A DNA stretch of 62,740 nucleotides, filler included, from Sphacelaria rigidula (Eukaryota), in NCBI GenBank assembly GCA_964200075.2. It is 11 parts of 11 records of this genome, joined end to end, with 100 filler letters (N's around TTAATTAATTAA, not from the genome) between each part and the next. Parts side by side here need not be neighbours in the genome. Positions count along the whole stretch, not along the records: positions 39,992 to 45,604 come from CAXNAA020025862.1; 10 more parts are not named here. One strand, given 5' to 3'. The position numbers and the translations under genes are program-made. Numbering within the stretch: the stretch's first letter is position 1; every line of letters begins with the position of its first letter. The notes under the pieces were generated by a model, which worked only from the letters and a program-made list of their open reading frames with translations, was not told the origin of the DNA and made no database searches. Positions 37,147 through 49,151 of the stretch are shown piece by piece.

Positions 37147-38153
37147 CTGGAGTATGACACGAGAATAAAAAGGACATCATGCTCGAGGCTGATCCCAGGG
37201 AAACAAAACCGAGAACCCGTCAATTTTCCCTCCTCCAGTTGTGAGTTTTTTTCCTCCGTCATAATTGCAGTCTCGAGGGATGAAGCTACCTCTGCTCTAG
37301 TGCAGCACATGCCTTGATTGCTGTTGGTTTGATGGGTTGTCGCACTTTTGACTTACCCCCCCCAGGGGTCATGATTCAGCCTTGGTCATTATCCAACATG
37401 ATCGACGAACAGTACCCGAGACAAGAGCAAGACTGAAACACTCGTTGAAGAATAATAAGTGACGAAAAACAGGCAAGGCAGAACACACAGACAGAGTAGA
37501 CTTCTTAGAAAGAAAAGAGAAGAGGAGAGAAGAGAAGAGAAGAGAAGAGAGAGTAATACGAAGACGTGATAAAAGAAAAAAGGTTTCAACTTGCTGTCGA
37601 GCACCGGGTCATGACCAGCACCACTCCCGCAGTCCGGCGACTCTGTTGATGGACTTTATATCATTTTTTATTGTGCCTTTGACAGAGTAGACTAAGAAAA
37701 GAAGAGAAAAAAAAGAGATAAAACAAAGACAAATGTGAATAACACTTGTGAGAACCCAGCATACCTTATAGTTCTGTCCAAGAACCTTTTATTGGTTCTA
37801 TTCATGAGAACGTTCTAGCACTGAGCAAGGTTCCTCAGACGTCCGCTAGATCTTTGGAGGGTGGTCTATTTGTCTCGGAATATCGGGACAATATCAGACC
37901 GAATATGCCCAAGAATCACAGAACGTTGTACACACCAAACCCAAGGTTATCTACACGTTGAACTGAACTCCAGGCCAATGTCTGTGGGTACATGGTTCCT
38001 TGATCCATGTCTTGTTGTCTGAGATGAGCTGCTGCATGGATAGATCGCAGATCATCCCCACCTCATCACACAATAATCACAACCACTCTTCTTCTCTCGA
38101 TCTCCACTCTGTCTGTCAAGCTCACTCGAGCTCTGTCCTGTCCACTCAACGCC

Positions 38154-39769: not shown

Positions 39770-42700
39770 CTTTTCGTGTGTGGGAGAGGGCGGCAGGGGA
39801 GTACTCATTTGTTGCTTGCCTTAGTCGTGTGACTATTGACCACGCATCCTTTTCGAGACGGAGCGCGCGCGGGGGGGGGGGGGGGGGGGGGNNNNNNNNN
39901 NNNNNNNNNNNNNNNNNNNNNNNNNNNNNNNNNNNTTAATTAATTAANNNNNNNNNNNNNNNNNNNNNNNNNNNNNNNNNNNNNNNNNNNNCGAGTCGAC
40001 TCATCATACTAGAACCAAGTAATTTTCAGACGACTCATTATTTGTCCGACCCTTGAAGTATTTTTGCATGCCACTGTTCGTCCCAGGTAACGTTTGATCA
40101 CAATGTTTGTGGACCGGGAGATACTAGACATACCCTCCACATTCCGGGATTGTGGTGGTATATGACAGCGTGCGAGAATTAAACTTTCACAGTGGGATAT
40201 CACGATCGTTTCACAAACGACCGGCGGGTATGAGGAGATCCTAGTCGGAAGTGTGCTTGTGTAAAATAGAAAATGGGCTATTTGCTTGGCTGATTGGCGT
40301 TTTCATGAGTTTGTGTTTGGACATCGCCTGTGCCGGATTAGTCATATGTGGGACACGCGTGCCAACGCTTGATTGGTTGGAGGCACACGCCGGGATGAGT
40401 TTGTAATATGGCAGTTGTATGCGTGGCTACGAAAAGGATTTTGCTTAAACCTCTGGCACCCGCCCTTTCACTTGCTCCCCAGACCGATCTACAAGCATCA
40501 TTTGGATACTAGAAGAGCTTTCAATCGTCGCCCACCCCTCTGATCTCTTCATTTCTGCCTGGTGCCCAAGTCCACAGCTCGGACCACGTGGGTAGTGGAG
40601 AGTCGTGCGTATTTTATCCTTATATATACCCTTCGTTCCTGTTTTACCCTTCGATCGATTGCGACTACCTGAAAGGCTGGCTGAAATTCCTTCACAGCAG
40701 GGTCAAGTGGGCGCTTAATTTGAGAGCTTCAGAGCTAGTAGTCCAAACTGAATACAGGACCGCTCGCTAGCATTTCTCAAGGGTATGGCTTGCTTGCATC
40801 GGCGTATACGGCAGTACTGCTCTACGGCATTGCCTACACTTCTACAGAATAAGATAATATATGCGCTCATTATTGGAGGATTTATGGGCTGGTCTGTTTT
40901 CGGGAGTCGTGAGCCAGCCCTAGCTTCTAATCCTTGAATATTTTTGCTTGATCGAAGCAACTCCGATCGTTTTCGTCAACAAACGAAAATGATCGCTTGT
41001 GAAATTTCTGCGTGTTTATTGCGCCAGAGCCGAAAAACTGTGTTTTTCGGATCAGTCACGGTCGATAACACCCCCTGCTAAACAACGTACTCACTCGGTA
41101 TCACCCCGAGACGCTTTTTACGATAGCTCCCCCGCCAAGAGTACATGGTTTTCGAAGGCAAAATCTTCACATAAATCGAAATGGGAAAAGTCGAGCACAA
41201 CGAGCAGCTGAGAATTCCCACGCTTGGGTTCGTTTTCGCCAATGTCGCCAATATGAGACGCTTCATGCGGCCTGAACCCAAGCATCAGGCGCTGCATGGC
41301 CATTTTTTCTGCGACACTTTTGGGCTGGTTTTGGGGGGAGGGGGGGGGGGTATCGTAGAAAGTGTCCCGACAACACCAAGGGAGGACTGTGCTCTCAGCA
41401 CGACCTGCTTCTCTTCTCAATATGAATCGACGCTAGGACTTCTAAGCGCCAAGTGTAATATGGGAAGGCTCCACACACCTTCCTAGATGAGTGTTTATCA
41501 ATGTGCTGCAAGCTGGGTGAAATGCACAAGGTGCAATGCTGTATCCGAGCAGAACAAGCTGCAGACATGTGTTTCACACGCACAGGTTCACGTGACTGTT
41601 GGTCAACAGTAGCAAACAAACAAAGGAGCTCGAAGGCTTGGTATCTTGTTACTCTCGGCTATTATTCTCTTGCTCGCCTAGCGTACTGTCCTCACCGAGG
41701 GTAAACAGTAAGAGCAGATGGTCCAGCTCAGAGAGTGATCGAGGGTGCAAGTAACACAGCCTCTCTGATCTAGCCCCGAGAAGGCGTTCTTCCTTCTCGG
41801 GGCTAGGGTGCACAAGTCTGCATGCCAACCTTCCCCAAAACTATGGGAGAATTCCCATGAACAGATCGAATGATCTGTAAGTCAACCTGCCCCAAAACTG
41901 TCTGAAGGAACAAATACCGCCTCTCTATCTTCCTTCCTCATGACACTCACCCACCCAGACGAACTTCTCTTTGAGTTGCGATGAAATTTCAGGAGCAACT
42001 AAAATTGAGGCTTATCTCACCCATCAAGTCATGAGGAGACAGCGCGAAAAAAAACAAGAGGGCAATGACCAGCCCGCGCCCGATACTTCCACCCAAACGA
42101 AAAAACCAAAGGTGCCTCAAAAAGCGCAATCACGAAATTGCGGTTGACTGCGCAGTAGCACACAATGCTGCTGCGAGCTAGCGAACAGACCGGAAAAAGC
42201 ACACAATGCTTTGATGCGCTAGCTAGATAAAAAGCGAAGGAAAACCTCGCAAAGGACACAGTGGCAATCTCAAGCAGGGAAACAAAAACTCAAAGACCCG
42301 AATAGGGTCGAGTGCCAGCCGGACAAAGTGATGGCAGCGTAGAGGCCAATGGAAGGGGGCGAAGAAGATCCAAAGAAAGGCGTCGAAGGGGTCAATAAGG
42401 GCAGAGATGAGCCGTGATAGGAGAGCCATAGTAGGTGAAGCAGTGAAGAGAAGAGCGTACCTGAATGGGGATAAGGGAAGTACCAGAACCAAACTGGGAG
42501 GGGAGAGAAAAATCGCGATAAAGGGAGTGCAAAGAGATAGGACTCAAGATGGTGCATTGATGTCGTTTGTACGATCGATATTGCGCTGAAGGCCTCGGCG
42601 TAGGCCGTGTGACTTGAAGAGCAGTACTACGATAGGGGTTGCACTTTTTGTTTCTGGGTCTCGTTTTTGTAGGAGCCCAAATATATGGAGCTTACTGTGC

Positions 42701-42854
42701 AGCCCAAATCTCTGGGGACAGGGCATGAAGATGCACACAGGGGCCTTTTCGTGAATCGACATCATTTTCAGTCTTTTTCAAGTGAAAATGATGCCGACTC
42801 TCAAAATGATCCGTGCAACACTCCGAGAAACATTTTCGCGTAAAAGGTGCAACC

Positions 42855-45604
42855 CTACCGCAGCATCACTCTGAAGCGTTGTGGGCACCATGAACCGCGG
42901 GGTGCGGAGGGGTTAGTCGTGTATAAATCGGGGCAAAGCTTGAGCTGAACGGGCCCAGGGTCATCGAGGAAACGCACTATGTACGTGTCGGCCGCGAGGG
43001 CATCGACGGATTGAATCTGACCTAGCCACCAGATGTAATTGCTGCCCTTATCCCACAAATAGGCACCTTCAGGGAGAGGTTATTGTTTTACGCGAATCTT
43101 TTCGTCCCATTGTTTGGTGAATACGAGTTCGTAACCATCGGCTACAAAACGTAGTCCTTTGTCACGGTGGAGTTCGCGGGCTGCAGCACCGCGTCTCATG
43201 TTGCGATATCCCTTGTTGACAGCGAGCTGTTGCTGTGGGGATTGCGTCCAATAAAGATAAATAGCACGACGGTGCAGTTGAAGGTCGGACTCGCGTTCCC
43301 AAGACGCACGCCGAAGACCTTGCCAGTGTGTCTTGTACATGGCAGCAACTTTGCCGCCAGGATCTCGAGTGATTTGGTGGCCGGAAATGTGGAACACGGC
43401 CAAGCGGAGAGCTTGTTCAGTCACGCCATCAGTGGTAACGTGGTACGGTGGATATTTTGTTGAGTAGCTGTTGAGCACGTATTCAGTGAGACATGCAGGT
43501 AGGTGTTGCGGCATATCAGCAGTGTCATGCGGGTTCGTGCAAGGCTTGCAATGATGCACAGAGACGCGAGATTTAGCGTCATGTCCCTGGAGATCACGAG
43601 GTAAATCGAGGTAGAGGAGTTTGTTGCCAACAGGCATGCCGTCAGGAGACGTTGGCGAAGGTCCTACTATGAGAGTCTTGAACGGATCCGTCCAATTAAG
43701 GGACAGTTTGGTCTTCAAGACTGTTGCATGGGCAGTACGGTCAGCGCCTTGACGGATGGTGGACAAACTGTTGTAAATCCAGACCCAATCGCCGATCTTC
43801 CAAGTAGGGCGTTTGTGCATCAAGTTGTAGAGGGCAGTATTGGATCTTTCAAGGCGTGAGGCGTTGATAGCGTGTTGTTCACGCACCAAAGTGAAAGCCT
43901 TGTGGTGACGAGCCCTGGCGAGGTCGTGGTAGGACATCTGATCCTGTTCCAGACCTTGTTGAGCATCGAAGGTGTGTCTTTCGAACACGGTGATGGGCAG
44001 ACGAGGGTAGCGTCCAAGATACAGCTCGTTGGGCAAGAGGGCTGTTGCCGCGTAGACCGAACTGTTGTAAGACAGCATGATATGCGAAAGGTGAAGATCC
44101 CAGTCATCCTGGCGGTCGTTTAAGACCATGGATAGCATTTGAGCCATAGTGTGGTTCACACGTTCAGTTCCACCGTTACCGTTAGGGTGGTGGGCGCTCG
44201 TGGCAGTTTTACGAATACCGAAGAGCTTGTACAAAGCATCCGAGAGTTCGGAGCAAAATTGTTGGCCATTGTCGGAGAGGAGCCGTTTCGGGCAGCCATA
44301 GTGCTTAATGTAGTCATGGACAAGAATGTCCGCTGTGCCGGCAGCAGTGAAATCGCTAGCAGTAACAGCGTACATAGACGCGTGACGGCTGAAGCGATCG
44401 GTGAAAAGCAGAATGTAGTTATTACCACGGTCAGTAGTGGGTAAAGGACCGAAGTAGTCAAACGATACGAAGTGACCAGGAGCGTTTGGAAGTTTCATGG
44501 AATTGACCGGCCATCGTATGGTCTGTCGAGAAGTTTTGCGAGCCTGACATTTGAAACATCGTCGGATCCAAAAGCACGCGGATGCTTCCATGCCGATCCC
44601 CCAATAAAAGCGTTCGAGGAGCGCTAACGTGCGCCTGACGCCTAAGTGGCAGGACAAATCAAAGTGACAGCCCTTCGTGACCCACGGACGCATCATGATA
44701 GGGACATAGATGCGGATAGGGGCGTCATGACGCATATGTGCCGGAGTGGCAGTTATGACTGCGGCAGCCGTGCCCAAATGGGAGTTGGGTCGGCACACAA
44801 GCAAATGGACGTCGTCGCCAGTCGCGAAGATAGTACCTTTGCGTGCAAGCTCGAGCACTTCAGAGGCGGTGGGGGCGAGTAGAGTGCCCACGGGGATCAG
44901 GATCTCAGCCGGGAAAGGAGTGGGGCAGTTAAGCCGTAAGTACCGCATTGTCGCGCGACAAAGCCGTTCCTGTTGTTGGTCGCGAGCCCAATCGCGGTGA
45001 GAGTAGCTAGCGATAAATTCTCGAAGTTGCCCTTTACCCGGAGAACCAACCAAACATGGCGGCTCAGAAAGGGGTGGCACAGGTGAGGAAGCAGGGGTGC
45101 CGACGTCAACATCTTGATCCAGAAGCGGATCTGACGCATGCGTATCGCGAGTCAGAGGCGCAGGTGCAGGGAGATTCCCAGAAGGCGGCGTGGGGGTAGC
45201 GCGAACTGGTGAACGTGATCGGCGCGTTGGGCACACAAGGGGCGCGGACTTTGTCGGTACAACACTGGGCACGCGAGCGGTTGTGGTAGGTGTTGTACGG
45301 CTTGTGGGGGCACGAGGCGGCGGCGGCGACGCAGTGCTAGAAGCGGCCGACGGCGGCGGTGGTATCACGGCACGCGAAGAATTTGCACGAGCTGCCGACC
45401 GAGAACACGTGTTGTCGAAGATGAGGAGAACAGTTGGTGGTGGCGGCGCCGAGATGTTCGCGAGAGGGCCGAAAGTGCGGAAGTCGGCAAAATCAGCAAC
45501 TGTGGGCGCTAAGCCATCCAAAACTGCATCAAACAGCCGATTTTATATTTCGGGGTTCATACAAAATATGGGGCTGAAGTGGCATATCTGTCTTGCACGG
45601 AAGA
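42855..45604 (-). mobile_element. Ty3/gypsy LTR retrotransposon pol 3' portion: P/S/T-rich linker, integrase (HHCC, DD35E, GPY/F), chromodomain-like domain and C-terminal extension; 5' part cut by the contig end
   Basis: ORF 43080-45521 contains CHFDLSCHLGVRRTL..CFKCQ, FDYFGPLP, LSDNGQQF..GTERVN (35 residues between D and E), WTDPFK and YKTHWQGLRRASWERESDL. The same frame continues past a TAA at 43080-43082 to 42855. Confidence 0.95.
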
Positions 45605-47577
45605 NNNNNNNNNNNNNNNNNNNNNNNNNNNNNNNNNNNNNNNNNNNNTTAATTAATTAANNNNNNNNNNNNNNNNNNNNNNNNNNNNNNNNNNNNNNNN
45701 NNNNTGATAGACGTACCCACGAAAAACGAAACTGAAACACGCTCTGAGAAAAAGGGGACCAGAAAAAGAAGAAGAAGGTATACCAGTAATCGGAAAGAGG
45801 AAGTTGATAGACAAAACTACCTCTGTGGCAAAGCAATCGAGAGCAGAAGTCATAAAGTGGCGCAATGTGAACTGTACAAGGAGGGGCAAAACGTGCTAGA
45901 GGGAGAAAGCGGGACGTGAACGAAGGAGGCATGAAATCGTCCGATGTATTAGCTACGTAAAATGTTTTTGCGCAGAGTATGGGATAAACGTAATGAGCTA
46001 TGGCAGAAGCGTAATGCGCGCCGGAATGTTGAAGGTGTCTCCATTACGAGTAGGAGCGGTGCTCCGTCTCGAAAGGGATGCGTGGTCAATGGTCAAACGA
46101 CGAAGGCAAGCAACAAGTGAGTACGCCCCCCCTCAGATTCGATTGCACCTGTTCTCCCAAAGGGTCTCCTTGCTGAAGATCAGACTGGATGCGTTGGTTT
46201 GGGTCTACAGAGCACGATCATTCGCCACTGTATCCAGTTCGAGGTCTGTGGGAAGAAGTAGGCGTGTCCCCCCCTGCGGAGAGCACTTCGCCTATCTTCA
46301 TTTCTTCGCTAACTGTGCGGAATGACCAGTACTCACACCTGTTACGGAAACTTGATCGGTGCTGTTCGGGCGGTCTCGGGTCTACCACTTGGGGAGCTAC
46401 GTGACTCTACTCGACAAAAAAGGTGGCGTTGATTTTCTGCGAATGGAGTACAGTACTCAAGGGGGTACGTGTAGCTCACTGTTGTTGATGACCAGAACCT
46501 GCTTTGGGTCCGTGGAGAACAGCCCAGTGTCCAGAGCCCAGCAGGACGCCCACCAGCTCCCGTTTCTCCGATTCACCCACCTGTTGACCTTACGCTACAA
46601 CCTCCCCGATATATGCTTACACTTCTTGTCTAGCAAACCGCCATTGGCTACGATCGATGGAGGCGCTGTCGATGCCCCATCTCACCCGTTATCCTGAGTT
46701 GGCTTTCGTTGCGCTTCGTGGTCGTCCCTGGAGTTTGCCATCACAGGATTCTCAAGACAAATGTACCTGGGGTGTACTTTCGTGCGTCAGGCAATGGCTC
46801 TAGCAAAAGATTTGCAAATACAAAACACCATGGATGGGCGGGGCTGTACGCTTGCAACATGAAGGTAGCAAAAACACATGGCGAAGATGGCTGTAGAGTA
46901 AAATTGCCACGGGAGTAGATAATACAAGTGAAACTGTAGAAAGAGAGGAGACAAACGGCGATAACTCAGGGGGTAACATACGGCAGATAGGGGGGCAAAA
47001 AGGGAAAGAAAAAAATGATTGAGTCGATGAAAGGAGAAAATGAGAACAATAGTGCACCGTGCGCTATGACTGCTAAATGCAGACGACGAGGGAAAGGGAT
47101 CACTAGTATAACACAGTTGATAGCGACAGAAAAAAATTCAACAGCAAAAAATACCAGCGGGAGAGGATATAAACATGGTATGATGCAATACCAACGACCG
47201 TGGAATGACTCGCGGCATTGCGCAGGCACATTCAGGGCGACAGGAGCGGGCAAAATCGAACAGCAAAAGCGGCAGGGGCGGATGGGGGGTGTAGTATTAG
47301 TGCGCGCTCTACCGATGTTCGTATGCAATTCCGAAACTTAAAAAATAAATAAAGAGGTAAAGGTAGATAAAAATATAATATAATATAACAAAACAAAATA
47401 AAATAAAATATGGGTCAATTGTGAAGGAAGGAGTCAAACGCAACGCTACAGTAGAAGCAGGGTGAACAACAGAAACGGTCAAGGCTTGAGCCACGCATAT
47501 AATAACTTTTACAACCGGTGTGTCTACTGCTGCCGATCAACGGCACTGGTTGCCCCCGATTTCCTGGCGTGAAGGAA

Positions 47578-47710
47578 CCCATGTAGTGACGGTCCTCTGA
47601 AGTGTAGTGATGGTCCCATGTAGTGTAGTGATGATCCCATGTAGTGTAGTCATGGTCCCATGTAGTGTAGTCATGGTCCCATGTTGTGTTGTGACGACCC
47701 CATATAGTGG
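47578..47710. repeat. 21-bp minisatellite (GGTCCCATGTAGTGTAGTCAT)n, about 6 degenerate units
   Basis: Directly visible; it gives the YTTWDHD and CSVVMVP pseudo-repeats. Confidence 0.9.
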
Positions 47711-49151
47711 CGATACAATGATAATGCAGTGGCGTCATGTTGTGGCGTGGAGCGGAAGCGAATCCATAGGACTTGACCCGTGCAATGACTTTCCATAATG
47801 CCGCACATCAATCAATCATACTAGGGGCCATTCGTCATTTGCCGGGTGTTGAACATGTTTCGCCGCCAGGATGACTCCAGCATATAAGCCCCGTATGTTG
47901 GTCAGAAATTCATTCGGACTCACATAGAATGATCGCACAACTGCTCGAGCAGTCCTGTTAGGTACGAAGTTGCACAGTGCAAACACGCTGCCATAGCACA
48001 CAGTACAGTGTAAACACCATGCGATCACGTACCTGGCTAATATGGTGCAAACACCATGCTAACACGTACCTGGCCAACATGGTGGGCACCTGGGCACCAG
48101 ATCTAACAGGAGCTGTTTTCTGTCACAGTACACACCTGAATGATGAACATGGGTTACCGTCTCGCAATCCCTCCAGGGGCACAGCCCCAACAACCGCCGC
48201 CCATGTGTATTTTGCGCACGCATGTTCGCCAGTTTCAGTCTCGGGACACTCCACTCTCCCGGAGTGGATCAACAGCACTCACCTCCTGCCTACGGAGCAC
48301 TTCGTACACAGCGTGCCAACTATGGGTACTGTATGGGACACATTGATCGAACGTGCGGTACTGTAAGATCCCGACCTGGACTTTTTGAATTTTGAATTTT
48401 GAAATTGTGAAAAAACAGTCCTGTGTTGTCGTGTTAGCACGGAAGGTAGCAAGCATACGCTGCAGCCAGGTGTCTCAGCTCCGTTTTGCCCAGCTGATGG
48501 TCTCTTCGAGTAACCAACAGGCATGTAAGATTCTGGCACCTAAACACGTGATCGTTGCTCAGAAGACCCCACGCTGAACAGAAAGCAGAACAGAAAGCAC
48601 GATTGATCCACTACTGTACACCGTATGCAAACACAACGCGAAACAGTGCAGCTCTACAGCGATGCGACTATGCAGTATTGCTTACATTCTCGATTGGTCA
48701 CCATGTCGTGGTCTGATCACGAGGTGATACTGGCGTCACTCTCAAAGAACACGCCCGGCCCGGGGTGACACGAGGTCAGCGGCTGGCCACATTGAACAAT
48801 CGCAGTCGAGCGGAACGAACCTTGAGCTCGTGAATAACAGACCATCGAGTCCGATAAGCACTGCACCGCAAGGCCAAGCAGGGACTCACTTTCACGTGCA
48901 GAAGAGGTGCTCTTGACTTACTTGCAGGCGAGATGTCTCCAAGTGGTGGCTGATAGCTCTGTTAGTAATTAGTCTCAGCTAGGTAGCTAAACGAGAGTTG
49001 CTGGGTGATGGAAGTTGTGGGGGCGGTGGGCTCTGGTCAAGGACGCCCGATTGGAATACAACACCAACATGCGGATGGAATGAGACCTACTGCACTTGCC
49101 ACGCATACTGCAAAACGCCTACTACACATACAGTCGATATCCGCCCTAACA

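Follow-up and report, generated by a model that had tools for sequence, protein, structure and literature searches.

The window analysed here, a stretch of 62,740 nucleotides from Sphacelaria rigidula, consists of several contigs joined via N spacers, one of which, of ~5.6 kb, lies at positions 39992-45604. The minus strand of this contig carries a pol ORF of 820 codons (45542 to 43083) that encodes a Gypsy integrase. Similarity to P0317, a 1422-aa RT-RH-IN protein with 73% identity to the window sequence across 883 aa, identified positions 43083-45530 (minus strand) as a pol fragment of a Ty3/Gypsy LTR retrotransposon, comprising the RH-IN spacer and the integrase, in a 5'-truncated and decayed copy. 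The integrase H2C2 zinc-binding domain (44535-44714, minus strand; Pfam PF17921, Integrase_H2C2, E 8.8e-10) and DDE catalytic core (44052-44480, minus strand; Pfam rve, E 6.9e-8), together with the RT-RH-IN order of P0317, place the element in the Ty3/Gypsy group (Metaviridae), and the best PDB match was Ty3 Gag-Pol (E 4e-35). No paired LTR was found within the 5.6-kb contig. An Rfam search and viral-contig scans gave no match, a metagenome scan returned one locus, and no RNA run was present among those listed by the sequencing-run search.

Past the DDE core, the minus strand encodes in succession a GPY/F module, i.e. the SH3-like C-terminal domain of the integrase (43539-43802), a chromodomain-like segment, ~55 residues, a TAA codon and an in-frame tail. 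The GPY/F module, whose motif is degenerate in the window copy, was located by alignment; in the relative P0315, there is a weak SH3_Tf2-1 match (E 0.21). An earlier note on this DNA had described a chromodomain-like segment after GPY/F, followed by a TAA and a tail in the same frame, and we confirmed all of these on the minus strand, the chromodomain at 43406 to 43248 and the stop at 43082-43080. The chromodomain is group-II-like, as the only cage aromatic kept is the W45 equivalent (Pfam Chromo, E 0.072; VIA-align). It is followed by a basic linker (43083-43247, minus strand) predicted by AF2 to contain helices 81-98 and 113-119, with conserved Arg residues on the long helix. The sequence beyond the TAA (42872-43079, minus strand) corresponds to a predicted five-stranded beta-barrel of the Tudor clan with an incomplete aromatic cage, based on an AF2 model of a relative, Foldseek, VIA-align and profile matches. 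The earlier note correctly placed a break of the ORF at the TAA and missed a further one: the last strand of the barrel is cut by a 253-bp insertion (42619-42871), past which a match to the C-termini of P0317 and its cluster mates revealed the last 24 pol codons and the natural stop (42544-42618, minus strand).

The insertion is skipped by related contigs in four of four runs, with loose ends at 42619 and 42871, and harbours imperfect terminal inverted repeats of ~28 bp (17 of 28 positions matching) and a TTCA target duplication. This MITE-like element has GAG...CTC ends, and its depth is far above that of the retrotransposon in related runs. On its 5' side, pol is truncated by a very high-copy repeat that starts near 45532 (45532-45604), with a summed depth of about 1.9 million in X1 and a 38-bp fold-back. 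Two short motifs are conserved between the window copy and its relatives, namely a near-invariant PP(Y/F)HVTxxD directly N-terminal of the chromodomain (43410-43445, minus strand) and an RGxxRNxDxSR-like motif at the extreme C-terminus, after the Tudor domain (42570-42610, minus strand). Elsewhere in the window, a short minus-strand frame at 37150-37260 resembles by eye a DEAD-box helicase exon, presumably DDX23/Prp28-like, and a 21-bp tandem repeat is present in six copies at 47561-47728.

The stop codon and the conservation of the tail

The earlier note had left open whether the stop reflects decay or regulated readthrough. Using as a query the 187-residue tail region with the stop read through as X, we obtained 10 matches among 3013 candidates. 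The similarity of the tail is far beyond chance, since all 10 matches cover 99% of the query in unbroken ORFs (40-54% identity). The cluster of the closest match has 37 members, and 11 of the 15 listed align to the window fragment; among these 15, all five proteins of this closest family that span the TAA site, 70-75% identical to the window copy, have a sense codon there. A larger set comprised 167 relatives, recruited through their Pol similarity or their cluster; a whole chromodomain is present in 118 of them. The full tail is present in 88 of the 118, a count that is not wholly unbiased because the search profile included tail columns; in 11 others the break falls within the tail and in the remaining 19 it precedes the tail, its position varying from one sequence to another. 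A single one of the 118 ends within five positions of the TAA site.

A regulated readthrough that would yield integrases with and without the Tudor domain is suggested by the position of this lone in-frame TAA at a domain boundary. However, the stop is private to the window copy, as the intact relatives have a sense codon at its position (five of five in the closest family and 10 of 10 first matches), hardly any relative ends near it, and the window copy bears further lesions, with the 253-bp insertion, conserved residues altered throughout and private substitutions. We therefore attribute the TAA to decay, consider programmed readthrough extremely improbable and rejected it as a candidate. 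The window copy is a dead relic in which the stop plays no regulatory part. In the intact members, the chromodomain-linker-Tudor module is produced by ordinary translation without readthrough, as these comparisons show.

A profile of the linker and tail built from 9 sequences was searched against 1.84 billion representatives and matched 499 clusters at a threshold of E<=0.001, or 288 when this was set to 1e-10. The best 150 of these 499 clusters are mostly fragments and include one clear false match, P0234, a low-complexity bacterial Ig-repeat protein that we discarded. Among 18 non-redundant relatives, three of which consist of the C-terminus only, identity averages 72% for the core and 63% for the chromodomain, compared with 44% and 54% for the linker and the tail, respectively. 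In the one DNA pair compared, the window copy and the intact relative L001, the Tudor domain has a pS of 0.80, which is saturated, and a pN of 0.30, resembling the rest of the integrase; by this comparison, the post-stop domain is under purifying selection. The linker has a net charge of +6 to +9 in the eight relatives examined, with arginines conserved at 90-95%, and 12-40 residues follow the barrel in eight intact proteins.

Over 21 rows, the identities of the core vary together with those of the tail (Mantel r 0.59, reached in none of 2000 permutations), and the core and tail trees have most small groups in common, with just one starred branch in the tail tree. Vertical co-inheritance is the simple reading of these observations; the module is kept by selection and inherited together with the integrase. 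Some variants depart from the common architecture. Of P0070 and P0051, one has an in-frame loss of the chromodomain and linker with the Tudor domain kept, and the other a tandem duplication of the linker. In P0165, P0166, P0158 and P0229, the tail is present without the integrase core. P0158 resembles a gene-model fusion, while P0165, P0166 and P0229 consist of long low-complexity, gag-like or unknown ORFs joined to the Tudor domain and, for P0229, also to the chromodomain; the latter three may have arisen by deletion or shuffling, or may be artefacts of gene models.

Relatives with a full Pol harbour an N-terminal NADAR domain (E 1e-45), and both the chromodomain and the Tudor domain are found in all seven NADAR-bearing Pols. 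The labelled relatives belong to Ectocarpus sp. and Nemacystus decipiens, and S. rigidula is represented in the closest cluster; these labels indicate a brown-algal host, not specifically Ectocarpus. NADAR marks lineage IV in the available part of Dinatale et al. 2025 (PMC12477816). None of the five rows of the window's own subclade carries NADAR, and the window copy is devoid of its 5' part, so that the window element could belong either to the NADAR-bearing lineage itself or to its sister group. The intact Pols of L001 (190-7347), P0043, P0046 and P0037 are 2200-2400 aa long and comprise NADAR, protease, RT, RNase H, a long Pro/Ser-rich spacer, integrase, chromodomain and Tudor domains. In these proteins, three captured domains are present in one polyprotein.

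Folds and aromatic cages of the two domains

We modelled the module with AF2 from a 40-row alignment headed by L001. In the model (pLDDT 90.1, pTM 0.77), a chromodomain with three strands and a helix is followed by a long helix, then by a short strand and helix and finally by a five-stranded barrel; the high pTM hints at a packed chromo-linker-Tudor unit. The predicted chromodomain has the expected three-stranded sheet and C-terminal helix (E20-30, E36-44, E51-54 and H55-70), and VIA-align matched it to Chp1 (Z 7.4, rmsd 1.6, 53 residues aligned) and HP1 (Z 7.0, rmsd 1.4, 51 aligned); chromoshadow domains are also among its matches (Z 6.9-7.0). Pfam Chromo is detected at E<=1 in 17 of 40 relatives, the best at 0.0016, under the Pfam cut-off as in the window.

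The barrel of a relative modelled alone has five antiparallel strands in a Tudor arrangement (pLDDT 90.9). The PHF19 and PHF1 Tudor domains ranked first in Foldseek (E 0.012-0.04, prob 1.0), with a TMt of about 0.6 to PHF19, PHF1 and TDRD3 and zero matches at E<=0.001. In VIA-align, no match to the barrel reached Z 8; the top row was a PWWP-ssDNA chain (Z 6.9, rmsd 2.2, 56 aligned), with the PHF19 Tudor at Z 6.6 (rmsd 2.0, 55 aligned) and ties with Spindlin, RDM15 and TDRD3 as well as with the non-reader SH3-like TraI, KOW and UvrD. Scores of this kind are intermediate (Z at best 6.9 and 7.5; Foldseek E at least 0.012), and no solved chain matching both domains together was found in the top 50 VIA-align rows. 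Two sequence profiles, independently of structure, gave the PHF19/PHF1 Tudor as the best PDB match (E about 0.03). No Pfam family was found above the cut-off for the tail, Agenet being weakly detected in 7 of 60 and 9 of 40 sequences, and Atlas matches were Tudor-clan or chromo proteins, all named ones under 0.9 and hence leads only.

The earlier note had predicted a second Royal-family fold, and a predicted barrel of this type indeed follows the chromodomain, is conserved across the lineage and belongs to the integrase ORF of intact elements. Its assignment is at the Tudor-clan level only, because of the ties with other SH3-like barrels. The more precise proposal of a PWWP domain was not supported. 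PWWP domains are defined by a P-W-W-P motif and by an aromatic residue of the cage that precedes the motif by two positions. The consensus here reads G-L-W-W-L, an aromatic occupies the cage Y/F position in 1% of the sequences, Pfam PWWP was detected in one of 60 (E 0.12), and the best sequence matches are to Tudor domains. The barrel model shows no helix of four or more residues that might correspond to the PWWP helical bundle, but the modelled relative ends shortly past strand 5. With good confidence, we predict a Tudor-clan barrel, sequence favouring Tudor over PWWP.

We assessed the aromatic cages from alignments, with the chromodomain register taken from VIA-align and the Tudor register from the profile match. 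Many of the sequences scored are decayed copies, which lowers the percentages but cannot create the pattern described below. The chromodomain cage is formed by Y24, W45 and Y48 of HP1 (PMC3350952, available part), and the consensus at these positions is L, W and L. Of 26 ungapped non-redundant chromodomains, 22 have one cage aromatic, two have two, two have none and none has all three, so that they do not belong to the methyl-lysine-reading group I; no aromatic column is found in columns 15-19. Methyl-lysine-reading Tudor domains have cages of 3-5 aromatics, W41, Y47, F65 and F71 in PHF1, according to the available parts of PMC7492083 and PMC13285377. The corresponding residues are A, G or S, then W, F and P. 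Among 116 non-redundant Tudor domains, 84 have two cage aromatics, 31 have one, one has none and none has three or four, which sets them apart from the PHF1/PHF19-type readers. The earlier note had placed Y, W and F at cage-like positions; the Y is a private substitution of the window copy, its position being aromatic in 1% of the 116 and in none of the closest family. At the sequence level, both canonical cages are incomplete.

The earlier note's proposal of a bivalent methyl-histone reader is weakly supported, and a canonical reader of this kind is not borne out by the counts of 0/26 and 0/116. A version in which partial or rebuilt pockets would steer integration to, e.g., H3K79me2- or H3K36me-marked brown-algal chromatin is in line with the methyl-lysine readers found as nearest structures (PHF19/PHF1 Tudor, Chp1/HP1/MPP8). 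The Tudor domain also retains the Y47- and F65-equivalent aromatics (91% and 80%) and two adjacent Asp residues (87% and 78%), and several other aromatics are conserved (W132, Y133, W140, Y155, Y175 and W186, as well as the Y/F of the PPYH motif), which could form another, rebuilt pocket. An aromatic that the cage lacks could come from the PP(Y/F)HVTxxD motif, or this motif could fill the peptide-binding groove. Against this version, beyond the missing aromatics and the private nature of the cage Y, the W41A substitution abolishes binding by PHF1 and loss of the fourth PHF1/MTF2 aromatic leaves a three-aromatic cage that binds weakly (PMC7492083, available part), and the W41 position is occupied here by a small residue. 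We consider it unlikely.

A structural or nucleic-acid role is equally doubtful, i.e. an additional SH3-like DNA/RNA-binding or oligomerisation barrel that would stabilise the intasome or the particle and leave target choice unaffected. It would account for the incomplete cages, the ssDNA-bound PWWP in the top VIA-align row and the ties with DNA-associated barrels, the chromoshadow domains among the chromodomain matches and the conserved basic residues K134, K144, R158 and K167. In addition, the authors of the work on ECR elements doubt that the chromodomain sets targeting, in the available part of their preprint (10.64898/2025.12.07.692804). However, the specific best sequence match in two profiles is the PHF19/PHF1 Tudor, suggesting capture from a chromatin reader, and the module occupies the slot of the targeting domain of other Gypsy integrases.

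Possible function and comparison with known systems

By sequence comparison, intact elements end with integrase, GPY/F, chromodomain, basic helical linker and Tudor domains. On balance, we lean towards a module that anchors the intasome on chromatin, where it would probably contact DNA or the surface of the nucleosome instead of relying on two canonical methyl-lysine cages. Its position and the chromoviral precedent suggest that it would bias target choice. As the canonical cages are incomplete, the more likely binding partners are the DNA or the surface of the nucleosome, or else a chromatin protein; any methyl-lysine sensing would be weak or non-canonical, in keeping with what has been proposed for the group II chromodomains of plant chromoviruses. 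The Tudor domains of PHF20L1 bind nucleosomes via DNA irrespective of methylation, according to the available part of PMC13285377. A bolder and rather improbable hypothesis is that the module represents the first integrase-encoded tandem of two different Royal-family folds, present in a large radiation of brown-algal Gypsy elements and working as a rigid unit, whose rebuilt non-canonical pockets would read the nucleosome and target a chromatin state specific to brown algae (e.g. H3K79me2 domains), in a LEDGF-like manner in cis.

Integrase-fused reader domains set the landing sites of retroelements, and a tandem of chromodomain and Tudor would add another, hitherto unremarked acquisition to those of stramenopiles, in a lineage that has captured NADAR as well. 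With its degenerate cages and its conservation over hundreds of clusters, the module, which is compact and folds well, lends itself to tests of the ligands of cage-less retrotransposon chromodomains, and it might serve as a probe of brown-algal chromatin. A plant retrotransposon with double chromodomains has reportedly been described, for which our literature search gave no confirmation.

In the earlier note, the architecture was not known to have been described. This stands for the tandem: no chromodomain-plus-Tudor integrase was found in the literature full text searched, in the text and annotation table of PMC12477816 or in the available parts of a survey of TE-reader fusions (10.1101/2021.11.30.470311), the Chronos article (PMC5348765) and the centromere preprint (10.64898/2025.12.07.692804). 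It does not stand for a Tudor domain on a brown-algal Gypsy integrase, which is reported in another lineage in the available part of PMC12477816. There, Gypsy-10_Ec32 of Ectocarpus and Tribonema, presented as the first Tudor-bearing TE, is likewise a stramenopile Gypsy with this domain at the integrase C-terminus. By its description, it differs in belonging to a separate RT lineage, in having a Tudor aligned to cd20401 and in the lack of any mention of a chromodomain in the available text. The lineage IV NADAR-Gypsy elements of Ectocarpus (e.g. Gypsy-12_Ec32) share the RT-RH-IN order, a C-terminal putative chromodomain and brown-algal hosts with the elements described here, as well as an N-terminal NADAR with the seven relatives outside the window's own subclade that carry it, but the text and annotation table of PMC12477816 name no domain past the chromodomain.

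Plant chromoviruses with group II chromodomains have an integrase-fused chromodomain that similarly lacks the first and third cage aromatics, but it is a single domain without Tudor in the available parts of PMC3059260 and PMC3350952; brown-algal lineages are reported to be unrelated to chromoviruses (PMC12477816, available part). ECR-1, the Ectocarpus centromeric retrotransposon, is also a brown-algal Gypsy with an integrase-fused chromodomain. In contrast with the module described here, it keeps all three cage aromatics, belongs to a distinct lineage and has no Tudor domain reported in the available part of PMC11541908.

The Tudor domains of PHF19 and PHF1, which are H3K36me3 readers, are the best sequence and Foldseek matches and have the same barrel and register, whereas the algal Tudor keeps two of the four cage aromatics, with a small residue at the W41/W50 position and a proline at the F71/Y80 position. 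The LEDGF PWWP domain tethers HIV integrase in trans. Unlike it, the algal barrel is provided in cis and is devoid of the PWWP motif, of an aromatic residue at the cage Y/F position and, in the model, of a helical bundle, but in both systems a Royal-family barrel is linked to an integrase.
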